A stretch of 11,273 nucleotides of DNA from Candidatus Methylomirabilis sp. (GTDB lineage: Bacteria > Methylomirabilota > Methylomirabilia > Methylomirabilales > Methylomirabilaceae): the NCBI GenBank assembly GCA_041498975.1, contig JBGQJI010000080.1, positions 1 through 11,273 of the forward strand, read 5' to 3'. Below, one piece after another: positions 515 to 11,273 of the stretch. The stretch's first letter is position 1. The number at the start of each line of letters is the position of its first letter. The notes below the pieces were generated by a model. It saw only the letters and a list, made by a program, of their open reading frames with translations, was not told the DNA's origin and made no database searches. Position numbers and translations under genes: made by a program.

Positions 515-1945
515 ATGACCCACAGGAGCGCCTGGATCTGGCGTCCCCTTGCCACGTTCCTCATCGGCCTCGGCCTTTTCGTGTCCTTCGCCGGGCTGGC
601 GCGCGCGCTGATCACGACGTCCACCTTGTACTACTCCCCCCCTGAGTATTCCGGAGGCTCCGCCAACGGCAGCACATGGACGATCGACTCCGGCCCTGCG
701 ACGTTTAGCTCTGACTCCGGTTTGAAGCTCACCAACACGACCAACGGAACGCTGACCTCGATTGCGACCGTCACCGTCCCAGCCATGGCCGACCAGGCGA
801 TGTTCACGTTCGACCATGGCTATATGGGCGCCGGGGACAGTGTTCGCGACGTCAGAGTTCTGGTCAGCGTGGATGGATGGCGCACCTGGAAGACCTGGAA
901 CGGGAGCGCTTGGGTGGCCGGGAACGGGAGCGACGTGTGCGGGACCGGCTACTCGCTCTATAGGACGGAGCACACCTGGGACCAGATCGCTTCGCTGCTC
1001 CTGGGCACCTCGCGGCTCTCCTTCAGACTCTGCCTCTCTGCTGGCCCCTTCACCAGCGTGTACGTCAATATGCTCCGCCGCATGCAAGGAGGCCAGATCA
1101 CCATCCGCCTCTCGCCGAACCCGGCCACCGTCGGCCAGACCGTGACCGCCGCCGTCACTGTGCCGTCCATCCTGGCCACCGGCTTTTCCACCCCAGGCAA
1201 TCACATCTGTTGGGAGAAGGGCAACTGCTTGAAGAAGACCGTAATCAACGTCTGGCCACCAGGAACCTCCACCTATACACACACTTACACAACCAGTGGA
1301 ACACGGACCGTCGTGGTCTCCTATTGGTTCAAGTCCGGCGCAATGAAGCAATACCTGAGGAATCACTTGATTACCCAGAGCCTGACGGTCGCCGATCACC
1401 GGCCCAGTATTGGCAGCGTGAGTCCCAGCTCTACGACTGCCGGCGCCCCTCAGTTCACGCTGGCGGTCAACGGCAGCAACTTTCAAAGCACAACCTCGGT
1501 GGTCAACTGGAACGGCACGCCCCTCGCCACGACCTTCGTGAGCCCCCGCCAGCTCACGGCCGCGATCCCGACCGCTAACGTCGCAACCGGTGGCCTTGCC
1601 AGTGTGACGGTCGTTGATAGTGCTACCGGCTCTTCGAACCCGGCGACCTTCACCATCAACAACCCCGTCCCTACAACGACCGGCCTCGTTCCCGCCTCGA
1701 TCACCGAACCTGGCGCAGAGTTCGCTCTGACCGTGAGCGGGACCGACTTCATGAACAACTCAACGGTCCAATGGAACGGCACGAGCCTCACGACCTCCTT
1801 CGTGAGTCCTACCCAGCTTCGTGCGGCGATCCCTGCCGCCCATGTGGCCTCGGCCGGGATCGCCGCTGTGACCGTCTTCAACCCTCCCCCGGGAGGGGGG
1901 ACGTCAAACACGCAGACCTTCACGATTGACAGCCTCCCCCGCTAA
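515..1945 (+). CDS. Secreted/surface Ig-like protein: signal peptide or anchor, beta-rich N-terminal domain, PKD-like module, two C-terminal IPT/TIG repeats
   Basis: 476-aa ORF with SD AGGAG at 503-507. Basic then hydrophobic N-terminus (LATFLIGLGLFVSFAGLARA). Thr/Ser/Gly-rich. PKD-like HTYTTSGTRTVVV. Two repeats with the IPT pattern P-x(5,6)-P...FxLxVxGxxF...VxWNG...TxFVSPxQLxAxIP...FTI. Confidence 0.85.
   Translation: MTHRSAWIWRPLATFLIGLGLFVSFAGLARALITTSTLYYSPPEYSGGSANGSTWTIDSGPATFSSDSGLKLTNTTNGTLTSIATVTVPAMADQAMFTFDHGYMGAGDSVRDVRVLVSVDGWRTWKTWNGSAWVAGNGSDVCGTGYSLYRTEHTWDQIASLLLGTSRLSFRLCLSAGPFTSVYVNMLRRMQGGQITIRLSPNPATVGQTVTAAVTVPSILATGFSTPGNHICWEKGNCLKKTVINVWPPGTSTYTHTYTTSGTRTVVVSYWFKSGAMKQYLRNHLITQSLTVADHRPSIGSVSPSSTTAGAPQFTLAVNGSNFQSTTSVVNWNGTPLATTFVSPRQLTAAIPTANVATGGLASVTVVDSATGSSNPATFTINNPVPTTTGLVPASITEPGAEFALTVSGTDFMNNSTVQWNGTSLTTSFVSPTQLRAAIPAAHVASAGIAAVTVFNPPPGGGTSNTQTFTIDSLPR
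1403..1927 (+). repeat. Two tandem ~85-aa IPT/TIG domain repeats (approx. 1403-1657 and 1670-1927)
   Basis: Protein-level match VNWNGTPLATTFVSPRQLTAAIP vs VQWNGTSLTTSFVSPTQLRAAIP. Also visible in DNA (tggaacggcacg and ccttcgtgag occur in both copies). Confidence 0.85.
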
Positions 1946-2105
1946 ACGCTGCGCACCGTTCAACAACCATCCGACGTTCATGCTCCAGCAGAATTCGAGC
2001 AGACCGGGAGAAAGGATGCACCGAGCCACCAGAGGCCTGAAACCCTTCCGGGTAACCAAGACCCAGTCTTGCGAAATGCAACTGCGACAAACGGACTGTA
2101 GTGTG

Positions 2106-2262: not shown

Positions 2263-3033
2263 ATGGCGATTGAACTGGTAAAGCTCGACGACCTGATGTC
2301 CGAAGATGGCCATCGGGTTCCAGCGTATCTCCTCACTCCCCCCCGAGCGATGGCTGGTTCCGTACTGGTCCACGGCTACGGCGGCTGCAAGGAACAGATG
2401 CTTGGGCTGGCGGCACGGCTCGCCGATTCCGGAGTTACCGCCCTCTGCGTCGATCTCCGAGGGCATGGCGAGCACCCCGCGCCCCTGGGCCGGGGATTAC
2501 TCCTGGACCTTGAAGCAGGCCTTGCTCGCATCCGTCCTGCCGGGCGGACCATCGCCATCGGTCACAGCCTCGGGGGGCGGCTGGCATTGATGAGTACCGC
2601 CCAGGTGGCAGTGGCGATCTCCCCCGCGCTCCCGTCACGACCCTCCGAGGAGGGGCGACAGATGCTCCTTCACTTCGGGAACACAGCGGTGCGAGTTGCC
2701 GCCCCAGACCAGATTCTCCAACTGTTGCAGGAGATGGGACCGCTCCCCCCCTCCAATCGGCCGAAGCTGCTGATCCACGCCAAGAGCGATATCCCATCCC
2801 TCATCGAGGGGATCGTGGCCCTTGCCGGCTCACAGCCCGCGGCGCTCCGCTGGGAAATCCAGGCAGACCAGCACCAGGAGGCGGCTTTGAGTCCGGGGAT
2901 CCTCGGGTACCTCCCCCGATGGTTCAACCACCTTGATCTGAAATTTAACCGGGAACTGCTGGGAGAGCTCCCCGCACGGGTGGCGAGCCTCTTGGACCAA
3001 GCCGCGCTCTCGCCCCCACATCAACATCGCTGA
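2263..3033 (+). CDS. Alpha/beta-fold serine hydrolase (esterase/lysophospholipase-like)
   Basis: Motifs VLVHGYGG, DLRGHG and nucleophile elbow GHSLGG (GxSxG). Candidate acid residue in LLIHAKSD; candidate His in FNH or DQH. GGAGAG upstream of the start. Confidence 0.9.
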   Translation: MAIELVKLDDLMSEDGHRVPAYLLTPPRAMAGSVLVHGYGGCKEQMLGLAARLADSGVTALCVDLRGHGEHPAPLGRGLLLDLEAGLARIRPAGRTIAIGHSLGGRLALMSTAQVAVAISPALPSRPSEEGRQMLLHFGNTAVRVAAPDQILQLLQEMGPLPPSNRPKLLIHAKSDIPSLIEGIVALAGSQPAALRWEIQADQHQEAALSPGILGYLPRWFNHLDLKFNRELLGELPARVASLLDQAALSPPHQHR

Positions 3034-3117: not shown

Positions 3118-3918
3118 ATGAGCGACGACGTGGTCGAGATCCGAGGACAGCAGGTGACCCTCTTTCGCGAAGGGCCCGATGGCCGTCGCCTGGATCGGAG
3201 GGTCCATCTCGCCGACTTTCTCCAGGCGGTCGCCTCCAGCCATCCGGGTCCGATGAAGGACCGGTACCTGTTCCTGCCTCTCGGGACTCGCCTGGCGCGG
3301 GTCAAAGGGGCCAGCACTGTCCTGGTCATCGAGCAGCCGCCCCAGATTCGACAGATTCGGTGGAGCAACGCACGCATGGGCGCGGGAGGATCATACGCCT
3401 CTTATCGCCTAGCCTTCCCGTATCTCATCTATATCTTTACCTTTTACCGCGGAGAGTTCGAGGACCTCCGCCTCTATCACAGGACGGCGCCATTGCGGGC
3501 GGCAAACGACCCGGTCTTCTTGAGCAACCTGATGAACGTGCAGGCCGATCCCGGACTTCTCTCGTGCGCCAGGGCCTGTCTCCGGGGACGCCCATTGGGC
3601 CTCGCCGAGAAGCCGCTGGCCGACCAGGTGGAAGGCCTGCTCACCTATTTTTGGACCTCCGGGTTCTACATGGACATCGAGGGCAACTGTTTTGAGAGGG
3701 CCCGACTCCTGGACCCTCGCATCTGCAGTATGGAAGCCTGGCAGCAGGCGAGCGAGGCGGAGCCCCTCTTCCCCCTGGAGATACCCTGGGAGCTCGGGGC
3801 GCCCGATCTCCAGGCAGAAGTTGACCGCCAATGCGCCCTCCGCCAGAATTACCTGAATCCGATCGAGAGCGCGTCCGGGGTCGCCGATTTACTCTACCGG
3901 CTGGAAGAAGCCTGGTAA
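3118..3918 (+). CDS. Prokaryotic E2/UBC-fold family D-like protein (Prok-E2_D / PRTRC protein B-like)
   Basis: Ordered motifs EQPPQIRxIxW, YRLAFPYLIYIF, LRLY..PL...DPVFxxNLMNV, a Cys in RACLRG (Cys154, codon 3577-3579) and FWxSxF. This matches my recollection of the E2-D pattern (P.L.F...L..AP..NV...G..C.G...FF.S.F). Confidence 0.7.
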   Translation: MSDDVVEIRGQQVTLFREGPDGRRLDRRVHLADFLQAVASSHPGPMKDRYLFLPLGTRLARVKGASTVLVIEQPPQIRQIRWSNARMGAGGSYASYRLAFPYLIYIFTFYRGEFEDLRLYHRTAPLRAANDPVFLSNLMNVQADPGLLSCARACLRGRPLGLAEKPLADQVEGLLTYFWTSGFYMDIEGNCFERARLLDPRICSMEAWQQASEAEPLFPLEIPWELGAPDLQAEVDRQCALRQNYLNPIESASGVADLLYRLEEAW

Positions 3919-3936
3919 TCACAGAGGGATGGAGCC

Positions 3937-4275
3937 ATGAGCGAAAGAGCCCGCATTGAGATGGAGGAACGATACGGCCCCCTGGGAAGCGCGGCGAGTG
4001 AACTCACGATCCAGGGGCGCCGGTATGACCTGTACGAACTGCTCAAGGCGCTCGGAGAGGATTTCGACGATATCCGCCCGATCGACGCCGCGGGACTTGA
4101 GCCCGAGGGCCGCTTCGCCCTTCGAGTCTTTGATCTCGAGGAGCGGATGGTGGTCGCCTACGAGTTCGACGCAAGTTTCCGCATTCTGGCTGAACACCGG
4201 GCGCATATCGCAGAGTGGATGGGCGAGGACTACTACAACTTCAAGTGGGGAGTATGGTGTCCGAATTCCGTCTGA
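3937..4275 (+). CDS. Hypothetical protein, 112 aa, acidic, with aromatic C-terminus ending WCPNSV
   Basis: ATG preceded by GAGGGATGGAG, strong GC3 bias, 18 bp after the preceding gene and 12 bp before the next. No family recognised. Confidence 0.8.
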   Translation: MSERARIEMEERYGPLGSAASELTIQGRRYDLYELLKALGEDFDDIRPIDAAGLEPEGRFALRVFDLEERMVVAYEFDASFRILAEHRAHIAEWMGEDYYNFKWGVWCPNSV

Positions 4276-4287
4276 GGTCGGAATGCC

Positions 4288-5667
4288 ATGGGTGAGCATC
4301 CCCGTATTGAATCCCAACGCCGATATATCGAGTCCAGAGCAGAGGACTTGCTGGGACGGATCGAGTCGATGAACGACGAGGAGCTTCGGTGGACGGTGCG
4401 TCTCTTCGCCGACTGCCTGGATCCGAAAGAGCCCGAGGGGTTGCTTCGAGGCTACAATGAATATTCACGGCTGGAAGATTTGCGGGAGTTCGTGAAGGGA
4501 TTTGTCCCCAGGTACACCAGGCGGGCGTTGGCGGACCTCGAGGCCAAACGGATGAGCGATGGCTCCAGACCCGATGAACTGACCGACGAGGAACTGCAGA
4601 GCATGTCGCTGGCTGAGAAATGGGGCCTGCTCGAACGCTTCCCTGGCAGCTTGGTCGGCTACAAGCTGCGCCGGGAGCTGGCCAGGTTCTTCATGTGCGG
4701 GAACTACGATCTGTACCACGACGCCGGCCTCTCGGAGTCGTCGGTTGAATTCCCGATCTATCACCAGGTGCAGGAGCGGCTGATGGCCTTGCCGGACGCC
4801 CTCGTGGTCAAGCTGGCCGCCAGGGTGCAGGAGGTGAGCGCCGGCCTGGACCGCCTCATGCCCCAGGAGGCAGATGCAGTCCTGGCAAGGATCCGCTCGA
4901 TGATTGGCGAGGCCGTTAGTGTTCACCAACCGCTTGAGTCTTTAGTGGCCGGACGGATGGCAAAGCTGCCCCTGGTGGCTGAGCCGACGACGGCCGAGCT
5001 GTCGGCCGATGTGAAAGAGGCGATCGGAACGATGACGCCCGAGGAGCTCAAGCGCTCCCTGTTTGTGCTCCTCGACCTCATGACGCTGGAGGAGGTCCGA
5101 AGGGACCTGACCCCGCTTCAGGGGCAGTATCCATCGATTCACGACATTCCGCCGGAGGTCCTGGCGGCCCTGGTCCCGACCATCGCGGCAAAGCTGGGCG
5201 ACCGCACTCTGTGTGATTTCGTGGAACGCTATCGGGCCGGCCGAATGCTGGCCATGCCGCCCCTACGGGATCAGGTCTGGTCGCTTCTGCCCATGGACGA
5301 GCGGCTGGCGCTGCTTGAACAGGATAATGACCGCATGGATTTGGCCCAGATCTCACGGCACCTGGCCAAGATCTTCGTGAACCAGGAGTATCGGCTGCTT
5401 TTCGATCCTGAGGCGCAACTCGCGAACATCGAATCACCGGGATATCAGCAACTGGTGCGCAAGCTCCTGCTGGAGTTCGGGCGCCCCGAGGAGGGGCGCC
5501 GCCTTCGCGAGTTGAATCGAGTCATCAGCCGAATGATGCTTGAGGCCGAGGCAGCCCCCTTGTCAGAGCGGGAGGAACGGCTACTCGAGATCCGGAAGGT
5601 CATCGGGACCGCCCTCGAGCTCCCGGACGATCAAATCTTCGCTGGCAGGAAAGGACGCGAGCCATGA
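4288..5667 (+). CDS. Hypothetical alpha-helical protein made of two homologous ~225-aa halves
   Basis: 459-aa ORF with GAGGT upstream. L/E/R-rich amphipathic pattern. The two halves align by eye. Stop overlaps the next start (ATGA, 5664-5667). Confidence 0.85.
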   Translation: MGEHPRIESQRRYIESRAEDLLGRIESMNDEELRWTVRLFADCLDPKEPEGLLRGYNEYSRLEDLREFVKGFVPRYTRRALADLEAKRMSDGSRPDELTDEELQSMSLAEKWGLLERFPGSLVGYKLRRELARFFMCGNYDLYHDAGLSESSVEFPIYHQVQERLMALPDALVVKLAARVQEVSAGLDRLMPQEADAVLARIRSMIGEAVSVHQPLESLVAGRMAKLPLVAEPTTAELSADVKEAIGTMTPEELKRSLFVLLDLMTLEEVRRDLTPLQGQYPSIHDIPPEVLAALVPTIAAKLGDRTLCDFVERYRAGRMLAMPPLRDQVWSLLPMDERLALLEQDNDRMDLAQISRHLAKIFVNQEYRLLFDPEAQLANIESPGYQQLVRKLLLEFGRPEEGRRLRELNRVISRMMLEAEAAPLSEREERLLEIRKVIGTALELPDDQIFAGRKGREP

Positions 5668-5867
5668 CCCGCTGGGAATACAAGGAACGGATGGTCATGT
5701 TCAAGGAGACGAAGGAAGGCCTCGTGAGCGACTTGGGCTGGCTCAATGAGGTGGGCGCCGATGGGTGGGAGCTGGGCGCCTCAGTCCCCCTGATCGCCCC
5801 TAACCGCGATGGCGTGGCCTACGGGACGTTGGGCGCGCTGTTGATCTTCAAGCGCCCGATCGAGTGA
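5664..5867 (+). CDS. DUF4177 domain protein
   Basis: Signature WEYK ... LNEVGADGWEL ... FKRP in a 67-aa ORF. ATGA overlap with the upstream gene and AAGGA upstream. Confidence 0.85.
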   Translation: MTRWEYKERMVMFKETKEGLVSDLGWLNEVGADGWELGASVPLIAPNRDGVAYGTLGALLIFKRPIE

Positions 5868-6891: not shown

Positions 6892-7305
6892 ATGAAGCAG
6901 GCCACGCGTGATGACGCCCTACGATTGATCGCCGAGGCGGAGAAGGACGTGAAGGACGCCGAGATGCTTCTCCGGTATGAAAGCTATTACCCTCTCTGCC
7001 GTCTCGCCTACCTGGCGGCGGAAAAAGCGATGCGGGGATGGTTGGTCGGGAGGGGACTGCACGTCGCCGGTCAACCCACTCTGTCCTCTCTGGGCCAGCA
7101 GCTCGAGGCGACAGAGCCTGCCCTCGGACCGTTGATGAGGTCGCTCCGCCCGTTGGAGCGGTTTGCTCCGCCGGCCTCAGCAGGCGAGCCTCGTGGAGCT
7201 TCGTCCCCTTTTCCGCTCTACAGCAGGGAAGTCGCAAAAGAAGCCCTCGGCCTTGTCAGACAGATTCTCATCGAGGTCAAGGGGTCCTTGGCGGGGCCGT
7301 CATAA
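6892..7305 (+). CDS. HEPN domain protein (MNT-associated/sacsin-like subtype), degenerate
   Basis: Scaffold AEKDVKDAEMLL...Y...C..A..AAEKAMRG.L...LY SREVAKEALGLVRQIL matches HEPN. The typical HAQQ, THDL and RYP positions are substituted. SD GGGGAG. Confidence 0.78.
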   Translation: MKQATRDDALRLIAEAEKDVKDAEMLLRYESYYPLCRLAYLAAEKAMRGWLVGRGLHVAGQPTLSSLGQQLEATEPALGPLMRSLRPLERFAPPASAGEPRGASSPFPLYSREVAKEALGLVRQILIEVKGSLAGPS

Positions 7306-7335
7306 CATCGTTCTCTCCGGAGGAGCCTGACAGCG

Positions 7336-7614
7336 ATGAAGCGATACTTGCAGTTGCTGGGTGAAATGAGGAACTACCAATTGCCCCAGGCCAAGCGCGC
7401 GGTTCAGGAGATGGCGGCGGACGACGAGCTGGTGATCGTCGTGCCCGAGCAATCGCTGGCAGAGGCGATCCAGCAGTGGGCAAGCAGTCAGGGCTACACG
7501 GTCTCCAATCCGAGAAAGATCGGAGAGGGGATACTCCGGTGGCAGCTCGGTGTCCAGAAGACCGGGGCGGCGGCGGAGAAAGCGCCGGTGGGAGCGCCGA
7601 CGGTTCCCGCCTGA
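7336..7614 (+). CDS. TusA/SirA-like fold protein lacking the CPxP motif
   Basis: LQLLGEMRNYQLPQAKRAVQEMAADDELVIVVPEQSLAEAIQQWASSQGYTV aligns to the TusA pattern LDxxGxxCPxPxxxxKxALxxLxxGxxLxVxxDxxxxxxxIxxWxxxxGxxV. The protein has no Cys. SD GGAGGAG at 7319-7325. Confidence 0.7.
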   Translation: MKRYLQLLGEMRNYQLPQAKRAVQEMAADDELVIVVPEQSLAEAIQQWASSQGYTVSNPRKIGEGILRWQLGVQKTGAAAEKAPVGAPTVPA

Positions 7615-7635
7615 GCCTCGTCAGACCCGATTGAC

Positions 7636-8028
7636 ATGGAATCGCTCGACGCGGCAGAGGTGTTTACCACATGGGTTGGGAAGCTCCTTCGGCCGTTTCT
7701 GCTGGAGCTGCTCGAAAGAAGAGGCAACAGAGGGCCGGCTGAGGCCGATCTGCAGGGGGCGTTCGTGGAACTCTGGCCGGTTTGCTCGATGAAGCTGATG
7801 GTCCAGGAGCCCTGGATGGGGACGGTCCGGTTCAAATGCCTCGCACGGTACCGGTCGGAGGAATTTACACCGATGATCTTAGACCCGATGGGCCATCTGC
7901 GTGAGCGGTTCGGTGGCGGGAAATTCAAGGTGAACTTCTACCAGGGGATGAACTTTCTCGCCACCCGGAACTTCAAGCCCGAAGGCGAACCGAAGTGGAT
8001 GCAGATCCCGGAGCTGCCGGACGACTGA
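7636..8028 (+). CDS. Hypothetical protein, 130 aa
   Basis: Strong GC3 codon bias and 21 bp after the previous stop. Structured-looking C-terminal motif RFGGGKFKVNFY...TRNFKPEGEPKW. No clear SD, so the start is uncertain. Confidence 0.75.
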   Translation: MESLDAAEVFTTWVGKLLRPFLLELLERRGNRGPAEADLQGAFVELWPVCSMKLMVQEPWMGTVRFKCLARYRSEEFTPMILDPMGHLRERFGGGKFKVNFYQGMNFLATRNFKPEGEPKWMQIPELPDD

Positions 8029-8070
8029 ACCGCCGATCCCGCCTTCCTCTTGACCCACTTATAAGGAACA

Positions 8071-8114
8071 GTTTGGAGTTTCGGGTTCGCTCGAAACTCG
8101 AAACCCGTAACTCC
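8071..8114. terminator. Imperfect hairpin built from 7-nt repeats between convergent genes; possible bidirectional terminator
   Basis: GGAGTTtCGGGTT (8075-8087) pairs with AACCCGtAACTCC (8102-8114). It lies between the + strand stop at 8028 and the - strand stop at 8121. No strong U-tract. Confidence 0.5.
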
Positions 8115-8120
8115 CACCTG

Positions 8121-8384
8121 TTACCCCTTCCCAAGCAGGTGCGCGTCCATCTCTTTCTGGGCCTCGCCAAGGGTCATGTGAGGTGTCCGCTTGCTCACCC
8201 ATTCCTGGCGGTGGTCGCACTCAGGGCATTGCATGACGTACACGGTCTCCAGATTGAAGTGGCCGCAGTTGGGGTCGGCGGGATCGTCGGCGAGCGCGAT
8301 CCGATCGAAGGAATCGACGCGACGGGGGGGGCGATCCTTCCGGCTGCAGCGTTTGCAACGAAAGTCAACCGTTGACTCGGCCAC
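8121..8384 (-). CDS. Small putative zinc-ribbon/metal-binding protein, 87 aa
   Basis: CKRC ... CPEC pairs plus an extra CGH. GTG start with SD GGGAGA 6 nt upstream. GC3 bias favours this strand. Confidence 0.8.
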   Translation of the reverse strand: MAESTVDFRCKRCSRKDRPPRRVDSFDRIALADDPADPNCGHFNLETVYVMQCPECDHRQEWVSKRTPHMTLGEAQKEMDAHLLGKG

Positions 8385-8400
8385 TCTATGTCTCCCGTGC

Positions 8401-8438
8401 CAAAGAGGCGCCGCGGGCAGGGCCGCGGCGCCTCTTTG
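8401..8438. repeat. Perfect 16-bp inverted repeat (terminator-like or mRNA-stabilising hairpin)
   Basis: CAAAGAGGCGCCGCGG (8401-8416), 6-nt loop, CCGCGGCGCCTCTTTG (8423-8438), between the last U32 gene and the CxxC gene. Confidence 0.85.
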
Positions 8439-8461
8439 CTGGCGGCAATGAGGAAGATCGT

Positions 8462-9439
8462 CTACTGACTGTGAAGCGCAGCGACAGGGATCCTGCCTTC
8501 TTCCAGTAAGGCCTGGGTCCCCGTGCTCCGTTGCGTATCGCGGTCGGCCTGGATCGCGGCCAACCGCACCTTCCAGGGAACGATGTCAAACCGCTGATCC
8601 TTCGGGTGCGTTTCATAGGCATCGATCAGGTCGCGATAGAACTTGACGATCGCGCCCACGAGGGGAACGGTGTATTCGCGCCCCTGAACCTTCAGACAAT
8701 GGACGCCCATGTCTATCAGGTGCGGGATATCCTCCAGAAGGAAGAACGCGTCGTTCTTGAGGGCGACGCGATCCTCCCACTTGATGTCGCCGCTGTAGAG
8801 TTGCCAGGCCTCGAGACAGACCCGGTAGTCGAGGCCGCCCCGATTCGGGCTGCCCTTGAACAGGTCCTTGCCCGCGGGGTCGGTCGTTCGCTCGAGCCGA
8901 TGATAGGGTGACATCCAGCATTTGCCGAGATACGTGTAGCAGTAGTTGGCGTGGATGAGGATCTCGATCCCGACGTCGAGCTGCTCCTTCCGGGAGGCCA
9001 GCTCTCGAAGGGTCAGCTTGGTGTCCGCCACCACCTGCGAGACGCCGATCTCCCGATAGAAGGCGACGTCGGCATCGTTCAGGATGTTGGCCCCGATGCT
9101 GGCGTGGATGGTCAGCTCCGGGAAATACCGGTGCACGCGAGCGATGGCACCGATATCGGTCATGATGACGCCGTCGGCGCCGTAGCCCACGAAGGTCTCC
9201 AGCCGGCGCAGGAGCTCCGGCACCTCTTTGGACTGCATATTGGTGTTGAACGCCACCCGAAGCTTGGCCCCCCCATCATGGGCGATCCGGACCGACTCGC
9301 GGACGGCCGCGTCGTCCATTTCGAAGGCGTCGCGGCGACGGCTCCAGCCTCGTGGGCCGACGTAGACGGCGTTCGCGCCGTTCCTGACTGCTTCCGCCAC
9401 CATTTCGAGACTCCCCGCAGGTGCTAGCAGCTCAATCAT
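8462..9439 (-). CDS. Peptidase U32 family Fe-S protein, UbiU/RlhA/TrhP-type (probable O2-independent hydroxylase subunit)
   Basis: N-terminus IELLAPAGS...GANAVYVG, then HAS, EILIH, C-x6-C, SPNRGG and KVQGR. True start is ATG 9439 (or 9442) with SD AAGGAG at 9447-9452; the ORF-track extension to 9604 overlaps the upstream gene. Confidence 0.92.
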   Translation of the reverse strand: MIELLAPAGSLEMVAEAVRNGANAVYVGPRGWSRRRDAFEMDDAAVRESVRIAHDGGAKLRVAFNTNMQSKEVPELLRRLETFVGYGADGVIMTDIGAIARVHRYFPELTIHASIGANILNDADVAFYREIGVSQVVADTKLTLRELASRKEQLDVGIEILIHANYCYTYLGKCWMSPYHRLERTTDPAGKDLFKGSPNRGGLDYRVCLEAWQLYSGDIKWEDRVALKNDAFFLLEDIPHLIDMGVHCLKVQGREYTVPLVGAIVKFYRDLIDAYETHPKDQRFDIVPWKVRLAAIQADRDTQRSTGTQALLEEGRIPVAALHSQ

Positions 9440-9465
9440 CATGTTGCTCCTTTTACCTGATGGTC

Positions 9466-10422
9466 TTATGCATCTGCGCCCGGGCGCCGCAACGCAGAAG
9501 CGACCGCCTGTGGCCGCACGCCCAGGTACTCCATCCCAGATGTGCCGAAGTAAAACCCGTTGCAGAGGCCGATTCGAGCATGGCCTCTGAGCGTGTTCCA
9601 CCACCGCTCCTCGGTGCCGTCCGTTCCAGCAAATACTCGCTCCAGCGCTTCGCGGTAGACCCGGCCGACTTCCGCGCGATAGGCGGGACTCTCCGACACC
9701 GCCTCGATCCGAAAGCGCGTATGCCCTTCCCCAACGAGGCCTGGAAGGTGCTCCAGCATGCAGACGTCCTTTCCGCTCAGGACTCCCTTTCCCACCGACT
9801 TCATCGCCCAGTCGCCCTGTCTGAGAAAGAGATCCTGTTGGCAGAGGTCAGGACACTTCATCCCCCACGCCTCCTCATACTCCAGGAGAAAGCAGTGATC
9901 CGAAATGCCGAGCGGCATCTTGCCGTGGACCAGCAGCTCCATCGGAAGCCCGACCTGGCGTTGGATCTCGCCGATCTCCTCCAGGCTCAGCTCGTAGTTG
10001 GGTGTGATCCGCACGGCCCCGAACTGCTTCAGAACCTCGGCGCCGGCGTCAGTATAGACATTGGCGAACGCGCCGACGTGGACCGGCAGGCCGGGGTGTT
10101 CCTCGTGGACGATCTTCAACACCCCGAGGTTATGGACCTCGACTGCGTCGGCGCCTGCCTCGGCGGCCACCGCCATGGCCTTACTAAGCTTGGGGAGAAA
10201 ATCGTTCCGAGGGGCGGCATACGAGGTGACGTACGCCCTCAACCCCTGGGTCTTGACGGCTGCGATCGCCTCCCGCAGGTCACCAAGGTGCTCGAGCAGG
10301 TTCGCCTCGTACAGCCGACAGGTGATGTTTCCCAGGTAGATGGCATCGTACGGGCTCAGGTCCGACGCGTTGAGATCGCGAAGGTTCGAGATCGTGGTGT
10401 TCAGCTCGAATGGTCGGGTCAT
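9466..10422 (-). CDS. Peptidase U32 family Fe-S protein, UbiV-like
   Basis: DAIYLGNITC (Cys35) and ELLVHGKMPLGISDHC-x12-C-x3-C (Cys177/190/194) give the UbiV cysteine layout. SD AAGGAG at 10428-10433 supports a start at 10422. Orthology to ubiV is not established, so no symbol is given. Confidence 0.88.
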   Translation of the reverse strand: MTRPFELNTTISNLRDLNASDLSPYDAIYLGNITCRLYEANLLEHLGDLREAIAAVKTQGLRAYVTSYAAPRNDFLPKLSKAMAVAAEAGADAVEVHNLGVLKIVHEEHPGLPVHVGAFANVYTDAGAEVLKQFGAVRITPNYELSLEEIGEIQRQVGLPMELLVHGKMPLGISDHCFLLEYEEAWGMKCPDLCQQDLFLRQGDWAMKSVGKGVLSGKDVCMLEHLPGLVGEGHTRFRIEAVSESPAYRAEVGRVYREALERVFAGTDGTEERWWNTLRGHARIGLCNGFYFGTSGMEYLGVRPQAVASALRRPGADA

Positions 10423-10442
10423 TCGATCTCCTTGAAACCCGC

Positions 10443-11273
10443 TTACCGGCGCGCCACCGTCCAGGATGCGTCCAACGGGAATTCCTGGAAAGCGGGACGG
10501 GCCACTCCGTCCATCCATGCGTCGATCGTCGCACGGTAGCGCTGAACCAGCGGGCCGAGCAGGTCCGGTGAAAGGCTTCTGCCCTGCAGCTTGACGACAT
10601 CGACGCCGGCATCCAGGACCTCAGATAATCCATCGATGGGGCTGATCTGGCGGCTGGGCAGCAGTCGCCGGGCCACGCTCTGCCCGTTGAGCCAGAGGTC
10701 CCAGGGCTGCTCGCACACCTTGAAGCAGACACCGGCGCCCCCCCGTTTCATGCTACCGACGAGGCGACTCCCCTCCGCTTCAAGCTCCGGCAACGGGATC
10801 GGATTCAGACGGTAGTAGCTGGGCATCCAGCACTTCCCCAGGACGACAAACTCCTCCACCATGTGGATCATGACCTCGATCAGCACACCGGAAATTTGCG
10901 CTGCGGCGTACAGCTCATCGGGCGAGAGCGTACCGGGCAGCACCACAGCATCGGCCCCCAGGTCACGGTAGAAGGCCACATCGGCCTCATTCATAGCGGC
11001 ACAGCCGATGCTGGCGGTGATGCGAAGCTGAGGATAGTGAGTGCCTAGCTCAACGATGAGGCCGGCGTCGTTCACGATCACCCCATCGATTCCCCAGCCG
11101 ATCAGTTCCTGGACCCGCCCGACCAGGGAGCGCCGTTCGCTCCGGCGCGGGATGGTGTTGATGGCAACCTGCAGCTCCCGGCCCTGCGCATGGGCCCCCG
11201 CGATGGCGTCCCGCAGCTCTTCGGGGGTCAGTTCGCCCTTCGCCCCACCGCGACTCCATCCCTTGAGGCCGAC
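10443..11273 (-). CDS. Peptidase U32 family Fe-S protein, UbiU/RlhA-type, 5' end beyond the window edge
   Basis: The frame stays open from 11081 to 11273, reading VGLKGWSRGGAKGELTPEELRDAIAGAHAQGRELQVAINT..., homologous to VGPRGWSRR...AHDGGAKLRVAFNT of the 8462-9439 gene. Also EVMIH, LGKCWM, C-x3-C and KLQGR. Confidence 0.9.
   Translation of the reverse strand, partial: VGLKGWSRGGAKGELTPEELRDAIAGAHAQGRELQVAINTIPRRSERRSLVGRVQELIGWGIDGVIVNDAGLIVELGTHYPQLRITASIGCAAMNEADVAFYRDLGADAVVLPGTLSPDELYAAAQISGVLIEVMIHMVEEFVVLGKCWMPSYYRLNPIPLPELEAEGSRLVGSMKRGGAGVCFKVCEQPWDLWLNGQSVARRLLPSRQISPIDGLSEVLDAGVDVVKLQGRSLSPDLLGPLVQRYRATIDAWMDGVARPAFQEFPLDASWTVARR

Follow-up and report, generated by a model that had tools for sequence, protein, structure and literature searches.

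The DNA considered here, referred to as the window, is the complete contig C80 (11,273 bp) of a Candidatus Methylomirabilis genome, which comprises 241 contigs and 2.68 Mb and is 84.9% complete. Homologues of its genes are named Candidatus Methylomirabilis or NC10. The window carries three genes, herein called A, B and C or the trio, which are arranged head to tail on the minus strand with spacings of approximately 20 nucleotides (nt) between A and B and 26 nt between B and C (Table 1). All three products belong to the U32 family, as they match PF01136 (Peptidase_U32) with 80.9 bits for A (E 1.1e-22), 135.5 bits for B (E 2.3e-39) and 128.6 bits for C (E 2.9e-37), each above the gathering cut-off of 22.4 bits. 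This is the sole Pfam domain of each protein; the Pfam scan found neither a C-terminal nor a DUF3656 domain. The GC content is uniform over the region, and these are the only PF01136 genes of the genome, the fourth match being an overlapping copy of A on contig C81.

Coordinates of A and C were first given in an annotation made from the letters alone (the first-pass annotation); they are retained here, and that account receives two amendments. First, gene A is cut at its 5' end by the contig end, and its missing N-terminus lies on contig C81 (L005:10554-11141) with few strain-level differences. Here, positions 10839-11273 of C80 overlap C81 (L005 10707-11141) as the reverse complement over 435 bp, with 96.6% identity and 15 mismatches, which looks like an assembly break within gene A resulting from two-strain variation. 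Second, gene B probably starts at the ATG at 10420-10422, which is preceded by GGAG, rather than at 10518, where the longest open reading frame (ORF) would begin.

Table 1. Features of the trio and associated genes (positions refer to the window, except in the last row).
Feature	Position	Strand	Description
Gene A	10443-11273	minus	UbiU-like U32; 276 codons + stop; 5' end cut by contig end
Gene B	9466-10422	minus	UbiV-like U32; 318 amino acids (aa) from ATG 10420-10422
Gene C	8462-9439	minus	UbiU-like U32; 325 aa
Cys set of C	C167 8939-8941; C174 8918-8920; C208 8816-8818	minus	codons checked
Asp204 of C	8828-8830	minus	GAC; canonical Cys3 position
Glu141 of A	10851-10853	minus	GAG; canonical Cys1 position; truncated-ORF numbering (E176 in full-length L006)
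Cys set of A	C148 10830-10832; C183 10725-10727; C187 10713-10715	minus	codons checked
SIGC Cys of A	11001-11003	minus	TGT; candidate alternative fourth ligand
87-aa protein	8121-8384	minus	two CxxC pairs (zinc-ribbon-like); directly downstream of C
Alpha/beta-hydrolase	2263-3033	plus	256 aa; Abhydrolase_6/1
U32 cluster of genome G008	6866-12086 of L089 (G008:C1:2022000-2041000)	minus	4 U32 genes

The canonical U32 ligand set, CX6CX15CX3/4C, comprises four Cys residues, and both A and C depart from it, each having Cys at three of the four positions. Gene C reads C-x6-C-x29-D-x3-C, whereas gene A reads E-x6-C-x34-C-x3-C, with a 34-residue insert separating C148 from C183; the copy of A on contig C81 likewise reads HMVEEF. 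Both patterns, and the Asp and Glu codons within them, had been proposed in the first-pass annotation and are upheld by the codon check. In an alignment of 86 U32 rows, comprising E. coli K-12 UbiU, UbiV, TrhP and RlhA and representatives of a 50%-identity library, D204 falls in the canonical third-Cys column, which is Cys in each of the 75 rows that are not of the C family, and E141 falls in the canonical first-Cys column. A and C also have in common an LGKCWM motif, a long insert separating Cys2 from Cys3, and K-x-Q-G-R where K-x-E-G-R is usual. These likenesses had been noted as distinctive of the pair and are present, but the last is common to nearly the entire short UbiU-like clade in the alignment and is not peculiar to A and C.

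Gene B retains a full set of Cys residues. Here, C35, C177, C190 and C194 correspond to the CXnCX12CX3C pattern of UbiV, with the first Cys positioned upstream of the U32 domain, and there are two more invariant Cys residues, C221 and C287. In the available portion of 10.1101/587956, this pattern is experimentally shown to bind the cluster of E. coli UbiV.

To determine how widely the trio occurs, species-representative genomes were scanned with C, which gave 91 confirmed relatives, from which 80 loci with a C identity of 68-89% were retained. Gene calls in relative loci of high GC content relied on the GC3-GC2 criterion. The loci hold 70 A, 78 B and 80 C genes. Every one of the 70 loci with enough upstream sequence has the order A-B-C, and in the 10 loci without A, C lies within approximately 1.7 kb of the contig start. 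The Asp of C is kept in 80/80 orthologues and the Glu of A in 68/70, with Gln in the remaining two (L043 and L082). The other three Cys residues of A are present in 66/66 sequences and those of C in 77/78 rows, the remaining row being a gap, and all six Cys residues of B are present in 72/72. Thus, the synteny, the two substitutions and the intact UbiV-like character of the middle gene, all raised in the first-pass annotation, are conserved. As the substitutions are conserved across 80 loci, they are best read as fixed features of a unit under selection and not as the products of decay or chance.

The hosts of these loci are Methylomirabilota, Acidobacteriota (Thermoanaerobaculia and Terriglobales), a Rokuibacteriota bin, two bins labelled Anaeromyxobacteraceae, one labelled Patescibacteria, one Acidithiobacillales and two Thermoplasmata bins (L043, and L082 on a 575-kb contig). 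Median identity to the proteins of the window falls from 74% (C) through 68% (B) to 53% (A), which makes C the most and A the least constrained subunit, and the gene trees of A, B and C give the same groupings. The trio is therefore an uncharacterised, conserved three-gene U32 module and not a single-lineage artefact. An apparent A-B fusion in Terriglobales, suggested by frames of approximately 650 aa, was rejected: A and B are in the same frame with a stop codon between them (A at 7060-8043 and B at 8044-8976 of L049).

The two archaeal-bin contigs carry the whole module, that is, an AMP-forming ligase, A, B, C, a chorismate mutase and coenzyme A (CoA)-transferases, with C being 72-75% identical to that of the window. 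These occurrences suggest inter-domain transfer of the module. In L082, an IS605 OrfB/TnpB-like gene adjoins the module, and C appears frameshifted there.

Within the phylum, 151 genomes were surveyed with C as query at E <= 1e-60, in a tally that takes in the unpublished genome G047. Forty-four of them match C, 31 at an identity of at least 68% and 13 at 39-42%. The trio is present in 10 of the 17 genomes of the genus and was not found in four genus genomes that are at least 99% complete (G005-G008). It is therefore an accessory element within the genus and not part of the core gene set.

Related modules with several U32 genes are also present. In L091, from another family of the same class, there is a divergent trio in the same order, A'-B'-C', where A' is 49% identical to A and keeps HMVEEF with its Glu as well as SIGC, B' is 58% identical to B, and C' is 40% identical to C and has all four Cys residues. 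It follows that the A-B-C architecture is old and that the Asp is specific to the C family. The Glu-type A and UbiV-type B are then the constant parts and C the variable one, which fits a substrate-specific role for C. A different tandem cluster is carried by the four genus genomes, at least 99% complete, in which the trio was not found, with four PF01136 matches in G005, G007 and G008 and three in G006. The G008 cluster, the only one viewed in detail, resembles the trio in combining one UbiV-like gene with tandem UbiU-like genes and is equally uncharacterised. It differs in its neighbours and in that its three UbiU-like members have four Cys each, in a C-x3-C ... C-x3-C pattern where Cys1 has moved. 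Its UbiV-like protein is 41% identical to B, with the same six Cys residues, and the UbiU-like proteins are 36-38% identical to C. This cluster is interrupted by an NMT1/THI5-like gene and is flanked by genes for a PPDK_N/PEP-utilizer protein (854 aa) and an aminotransferase.

Known U32 proteins provide the frame in which the trio can be placed. Against the NCBIfam models, C and A score 126.6 and 79.5 bits with UbiU (NF047963, cut-off 440 bits), B scores 76.4 bits with UbiV (NF047965, cut-off 275 bits), and C, B and A score 136.8, 88.1 and 72.2 bits with TrhP (NF011996, cut-off 534 bits), all of these scores being below cut-off. The C family is represented in the 50%-identity library by one full-length protein (P0121, 70%) and by fragments at 61-76%, and the next full-length relatives of C are 35-44% identical. 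In a quick maximum-likelihood tree of 78 rows (LG+G4, with Shimodaira-Hasegawa-like approximate likelihood ratio test (SH-aLRT) support only), A and C lie within a 51-row clade of short U32 proteins (support 97), which E. coli UbiU neighbours (83). B groups with E. coli UbiV on long branches (SH-aLRT 80), and TrhP and the N-terminal RlhA domain are in a separate clade. The trio proteins thus appear to belong to no characterised clade, an outcome that favours the first-pass annotation.

The closest likeness is to UbiU-UbiV, which are also short U32 proteins of approximately 300-330 aa encoded side by side. UbiU and UbiV form a heterodimer; what the trio shows in this respect is the adjacency of its genes and the parallel gene trees. 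B has the cluster pattern of UbiV with the first Cys far upstream, as well as the C-terminal CNG[FY] Cys seen in E. coli UbiV, and the clade of A and C adjoins UbiU. In contrast, the trio has three genes instead of two, with carboxylates at ligand positions; A and C have the long insert and K-x-Q-G-R where UbiU has K-x-E-G-R; and the hosts are Methylomirabilota, Acidobacteriota and Thermoplasmata bins rather than Proteobacteria. In addition, the trio has neither a UbiT/SCP2 neighbour nor ubiquinone genes over cut-off, as explained below. TrhP (YegQ, 453 aa) and RlhA (YdcP, 653 aa) are of the same Pfam family but longer, with the canonical CX6CX15CX3C and further domains. The available portion of PMC5727448 describes RlhA as a U32 domain combined with DUF3656.

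The ligand positions themselves vary across the family. UbiU has Arg in the canonical Cys4 column of the alignment and uses a distant Cys instead, thereby giving up a canonical position; its cluster pattern is CX6CX16CX38C (available portion of 10.1101/587956). In the short clade, position 1 is Cys, Asp, Glu, Asn, Gln, Ser, Thr, Gly, Pro or His depending on the subfamily, and in some members the position-1 Cys is shifted nearer to Cys2 (C-x3-C or C-x2-C). Position 3 is Cys throughout this clade, except in the C family. Because position 1 varies in this way and UbiU has given up its canonical Cys4, re-wiring of the ligands appears to be a habit of the U32 family.

What might serve as the fourth ligand in A and C can be narrowed using the orthologues. 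Two other Cys residues had been named in the first-pass annotation as possible substitutes, and they fared differently. The GVHC Cys of C is unlikely to be a ligand, because it is Thr in 10/78 sequences. The SIGC Cys of A is kept in 64/66 (Thr in L058 and Ala in L051) and is a serious alternative: the two sequences without it retain Glu, and the two with Gln retain the SIGC Cys. In the wider clade, Asp, Glu or Asn at position 1 is usually accompanied by a Cys at the SIG+1 column, which is also present in several four-Cys proteins, including the N-terminal U32 domain of E. coli RlhA. The fourth ligand of A could therefore be either Glu or the SIGC Cys. For C, ligation by the Asp or an open iron site would be the simplest account. 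Iron binding by either carboxylate is a prediction.

AlphaFold2 gave confident TIM barrels for A and C, with a mean predicted local distance difference test score (pLDDT) of 77.5 and 74.6, respectively. These models hold no cluster, and pLDDT falls below 50 in the cluster loops (residues 175-217 of A, and 165-217 and 219-231 of C). The top Foldseek match of A in the PDB is Mk0906 (5D88; E 6.3e-09, TM scores 0.47/0.59, 18% identity), which is likewise a TIM barrel and is uninformative on cluster ligation. A PDB sequence search with C returned zero matches at E <= 0.001, and 5D88 was the only solved U32 structure found in the PDB, with none containing a cluster.

Genes for CoA enzymes surround many of the trios. 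Upstream of A, contig C81 encodes an IclR regulator, two family-III CoA-transferases, a zinc-ribbon protein, a short peptide, a 135-aa protein without known family, an AMP-forming ligase and a second IclR regulator. In NCBIfam, the ligase scores best against the long-chain-fatty-acid-, acetate- and benzoate-CoA ligase families and the transferases against succinyl-CoA:mesaconate, succinate-glutarate and formyl-CoA transferases; the ligase scores stay below cut-off and the transferase scores far below it. Both transferases are found within 9 kb of the trio in 21/80 loci, and the transferase pair, the ligase or both are within that distance in 30/80. These genes are upstream in Methylomirabilota and downstream in Terriglobales, and they are on the opposite strand in L061, L082 and L054 (one transferase only in the latter). 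In L092, a C'-type U32 gene is followed by two family-III CoA-transferases. Other recurrent neighbours are an enoyl-CoA hydratase gene upstream in L013 and L021, an Amidohydro_2 protein (22 loci), a single-PAS protein (25 loci) and a divergently oriented MarR regulator (25 loci, mostly Thermoanaerobaculia and other Acidobacteriota bins).

A second set of neighbours relates to the supply of prephenate. To our knowledge, U32 proteins are the only enzymes that take oxygen from an organic donor, namely prephenate, and their known hydroxylation substrates are only quinones and RNA. Chorismate mutase is the enzyme that produces prephenate. A jackhmmer search over all open frames of the 80 loci placed a chorismate mutase (PF01817) next to the trio in 15. 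It is immediately 3' of C in L021, L024 and L082, downstream of C in L027 and in L022 (behind a periplasmic-binding-protein gene), and immediately 5' of A in L043. In nine Terriglobales loci, a fusion of 3-deoxy-D-arabino-heptulosonate 7-phosphate (DAHP) synthase and chorismate mutase is located approximately 1.3 kb upstream. Pfam confirms the assignment in L021, L024, L027, L043, L049 and L082, while that in L022 is unconfirmed by Pfam. Being closely related, the nine Terriglobales loci amount to a single event, which still leaves at least four arrangements. These neighbours point indirectly to the use of prephenate by the trio, as would be expected from known U32 enzymes: in the available portions of the sources, prephenate is the demonstrated oxygen donor of UbiU/V-dependent hydroxylation (PMC10990095) and is required by RlhA and TrhP (PMC10990095, PMC5727448). 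The dependence of TrhP and RlhA on prephenate agrees with the chorismate mutase neighbours of the trio.

In the proposal that we favor, and on which we place even weight for and against, the trio is a heteromeric enzyme of the UbiU/UbiV type that would hydroxylate a small acid or CoA ester in a prephenate-dependent, oxygen-independent reaction. Here, A, B and C would be subunits of one Fe-S enzyme, with B as the UbiV-like partner containing a four-Cys [4Fe-4S] site and A and C as two distinct UbiU-like subunits. By analogy to UbiU-UbiV, RlhA and TrhP, a C-H bond would be hydroxylated without O2, the oxygen atom coming from prephenate. In C, the invariant Asp at position 3 would either ligate the cluster (3 Cys + 1 Asp) or free an iron for prephenate or substrate, and in A, the fourth ligand would be the position-1 Glu or the nearby SIGC Cys. 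We infer cluster binding, the three-protein complex, prephenate use and the substrate class; the genes, the residues and their conservation, the synteny, the family placement and the neighbouring genes are observed. The trio is probably a new oxygen-independent hydroxylase, and its substrate is probably a small carboxylic acid, possibly aromatic, that is handled as a CoA thioester. Bacillus has two U32 paralogues, TrhP1 and TrhP2, which provide a precedent for a multi-subunit U32 enzyme.

A three-subunit U32 complex was also put forward in the first-pass annotation, with a quinone, a lipid or RNA as the substrate. Its prephenate-dependent hydroxylase gains from the chorismate mutases beside orthologous trios, whereas quinone and RNA have become less likely. 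In the genome, which is 84.9% complete, the best UbiG score is 53.8 against a cut-off of 102.95 and the best ubiA_proteo score is 122.9 against 275.45, and there is no SCP2/UbiT near the trio, the sole SCP2 match being on another contig. A scan of flanking ORFs showed no quinone-pathway prenyltransferase, decarboxylase or methyltransferase for the window, C81, L012, L013, L021, L033, L043, L046, L049 and L090; it covered the flanks of L022, L024, L027 and L082 in part. Because UbiG and UbiA do not exceed cut-off, SCP2 is not nearby, the module is accessory and its neighbours are IclR and MarR regulators and CoA enzymes, the substrate is most likely neither ubiquinone nor RNA.

Several observations weigh against the proposed hydroxylase. 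The cluster of CoA-transferases is missing at many loci, and G003, which is 99% complete, has the trio, the ligase and a formate/nitrite-type transporter without an orthologous transferase, so that the link to CoA is not obligatory. The jackhmmer search found no chorismate mutase in the window or in the neighbouring contig C81, the genome's own being elsewhere, on contig C163. The stoichiometric use of prephenate would be expensive for a catabolic route. In both archaeal-bin loci, Gln takes the place of the Glu of A, which would be more in keeping with hydrogen bonding than with a ligand to iron. The LG+G4 tree behind the position of the trio beside UbiU and UbiV was a quick one, with supports of 83 and 80 and a long-branch warning. 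Finally, the status of the trio as the only U32 genes, together with a CmoA-like gene and the absence of TrhO among the matches in this genome, would allow for a role as tRNA U34 hydroxylase.

A more far-reaching version of the proposal is tentative and, in our estimation, doubtful. Here, the trio would be the first U32 hydroxylase with neither a quinone nor an RNA substrate: a heterotrimer with its own chorismate mutase supply that hydroxylates an acyl-CoA or aromatic acid under anoxia. The Asp of C, perhaps together with the Glu of A, would give rise to site-differentiated [4Fe-4S] clusters at which prephenate or substrate binds, and the module would have moved between Methylomirabilota, Acidobacteriota and Thermoplasmata.

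Four other explanations have to be weighed. The carboxylate at one ligand position in each catalytic-type subunit could indicate an Fe-S lyase or (de)hydratase, in which the iron without a Cys ligand serves as a Lewis acid to act on a CoA ester or a chorismate-derived acid. Iron is a Lewis acid in this way in aconitase and IspH/IspG. The types to which the transferases have their sub-cut-off matches (succinyl-CoA:mesaconate, succinate-glutarate and formyl-CoA) and the recurrence of the enoyl-CoA hydratase and Amidohydro_2 genes would be in keeping with such a function, and a review, in its available portion, likens U32 proteins to IspH (PMC11574389). However, no U32 protein is known as a lyase or (de)hydratase, and the dedicated chorismate mutases suggest that prephenate is a co-substrate, even though chorismate or prephenate could itself be the substrate. 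A lyase or (de)hydratase is thus unlikely.

Decidedly unlikely is that the trio is the RNA hydroxylase of this lineage, an analogue of TrhP (tRNA ho5U34) or RlhA (23S rRNA ho5C2501). The trio contains the sole PF01136 genes of the genome, TrhO (PF17773) was not found in this 84.9% complete genome, and the link to prephenate is equally compatible with RNA. A CmoA-like gene is also present (L094 (G000:C29) 1242-2039, minus strand), with 214 bits against the TIGR00740 cut-off of 193.3. Yet no CmoB score in the genome exceeds cut-off, and the CmoA-like gene is not beside cmoB but among genes for a GT4 glycosyltransferase and a polysaccharide deacetylase, where it may serve a non-tRNA use of carboxy-S-adenosylmethionine (carboxy-SAM). 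Carboxy-SAM is also derived from prephenate. Moreover, the trio is outside of the TrhP/RlhA clade, with its highest TrhP score of 136.8 bits far from the 534-bit cut-off, and its proteins consist of PF01136 alone, without a C-terminal or DUF3656 domain. An RNA hydroxylase also sits poorly with the regulators and CoA enzymes nearby and with occurrence in 10/17 genus genomes, the four nearly complete genomes where the trio was not found having another U32 cluster.

A or C could also be degenerate, without a cluster and serving solely as a scaffold, while the other of the two joins B in an ordinary UbiU/V-like pair. Each of the two is without one canonical Cys, and A evolves fastest (a median of 53%, compared to 68% for B and 74% for C). 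This is nevertheless improbable, since the remaining three Cys residues are invariant, apart from the one gap row in C; the replacing residue is itself conserved, being invariant in C; and C, although it has lost a Cys, is the most conserved subunit. Least probable of all is an oxygen-independent hydroxylase of isoprenoid quinones or lipids, in effect a three-subunit UbiU-UbiV with perhaps one subunit per ring position: among characterised proteins, UbiU and UbiV come closest in the tree, B has the UbiV motif and ubiquinone synthesis takes three hydroxylations (available portion of PMC10990095), but the equivalog scores are far below cut-off, the CX6CX16CX38C of UbiU is absent, and the quinone enzymes listed above are below cut-off or absent from the scanned flanks.

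If the proposed hydroxylase is correct, the trio would be more tractable for the study of U32 chemistry than systems acting on membrane-bound ubiquinone intermediates, and the scope of anaerobic hydroxylation in sediment and peat organisms would be broader. The trio is soluble, widespread and tightly conserved, it has three different subunits in which ligand positions are naturally changed from Cys to Asp and from Cys to Glu, and its chorismate mutase, CoA-transferase and CoA-ligase neighbours suggest a small, water-soluble substrate. As of 2024, the available portions of PMC10990095 and PMC11574389 have direct U32 hydroxylation activity, or an in vitro assay for it, as unreported. A three-gene U32 module, a carboxylate-substituted U32 protein or a U32 gene beside a dedicated chorismate mutase was not found in the literature searched, whose coverage excludes most subscription journals.

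Two further genes of the window may be associated with the trio. The 87-aa gene directly downstream of C is found by tblastn on the same strand downstream of C in 23/80 loci; its product has no Pfam or NCBIfam family, and it is possibly a fourth operon gene in Methylomirabilota. The alpha/beta-hydrolase is of a family that recurs close to the trio in other phyla, and along its whole length it is approximately 40% identical to the members found there in L013, L033 and L049; a link to the trio is possible.

On contig C81, three small conserved proteins without family are encoded between the second CoA-transferase and the AMP-forming ligase (L005 6601-7884, plus strand): one of approximately 135 aa with two CxxC pairs, a Cys-containing peptide of approximately 53 aa and another protein of 135 aa. 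The latter two are fused in Terriglobales into a protein of 213 aa (L049:14918-15559). In the protein atlas, the 135-aa neighbour returns hypothetical clusters and a glutaredoxin lead at 0.89, below the trusted level. An ORF of C81 on the minus strand, 'unk272', was rejected as an antisense artefact, as tblastx conservation with L066 is 73% on the plus strand versus 61%; the plus strand there encodes the zinc-ribbon protein of approximately 135 aa and the peptide of approximately 53 aa. Near the trio in Thermoanaerobaculia (L013 934-3510, L033 60-2612 and flanks), the gene for a GNAT plus NDP-forming acyl-CoA synthetase (Pat-like) protein is accompanied by one or two histone-deacetylase-family genes, and together they look like a protein acetylation/deacetylation pair.

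Regarding transcription, a scan of positions 7900-11273 gave two promoter-like sites (0.6 expected) and one terminator-like site (2.4 expected), which is nothing usable, and Rfam gave zero families at gathering score in the window and C81. Twenty-four sequencing runs are listed with some part of the window, 14 of which hold at least half of its words, and near-identical contigs (0-5 differing letters per piece) are present in three sediment DNA runs, X1, X2 and X4. An oligo-dT soil RNA library, X24 (share 0.05), has contigs that are 90-99% alike over parts of A, B and C; these come from a relative and DNA carry-over is possible, so they are no evidence of expression. Assembly cross-talk is the most likely source of two joints (9073 to 11245, and 10879 back to 9043), which have sides of 29-31 letters and lie between the paralogues A and C.

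Other ORFs noted in the window are on the plus strand. Positions 6892-8028 encode a HEPN-domain protein (137 aa), a 92-aa protein and a 130-aa protein without family, where the 92-aa protein has weak, sub-cut-off matches to TusA and ribbon-helix-helix proteins. This set recurs in 3/80 loci (L006-L008) at 60-81% identity and in the same order downstream of the trio (tblastn, E < 1e-20), and weaker matches of the 92-aa protein are present in L010, L014 and L085. Positions 3118-5867 contain four ORFs (266, 112, 459 and 67 aa) with no Pfam match at E <= 0.001. Finally, positions 515-1945 encode a 476-aa protein, unrelated to the trio, that has two IPT/TIG domains and an N-terminal hydrophobic segment.

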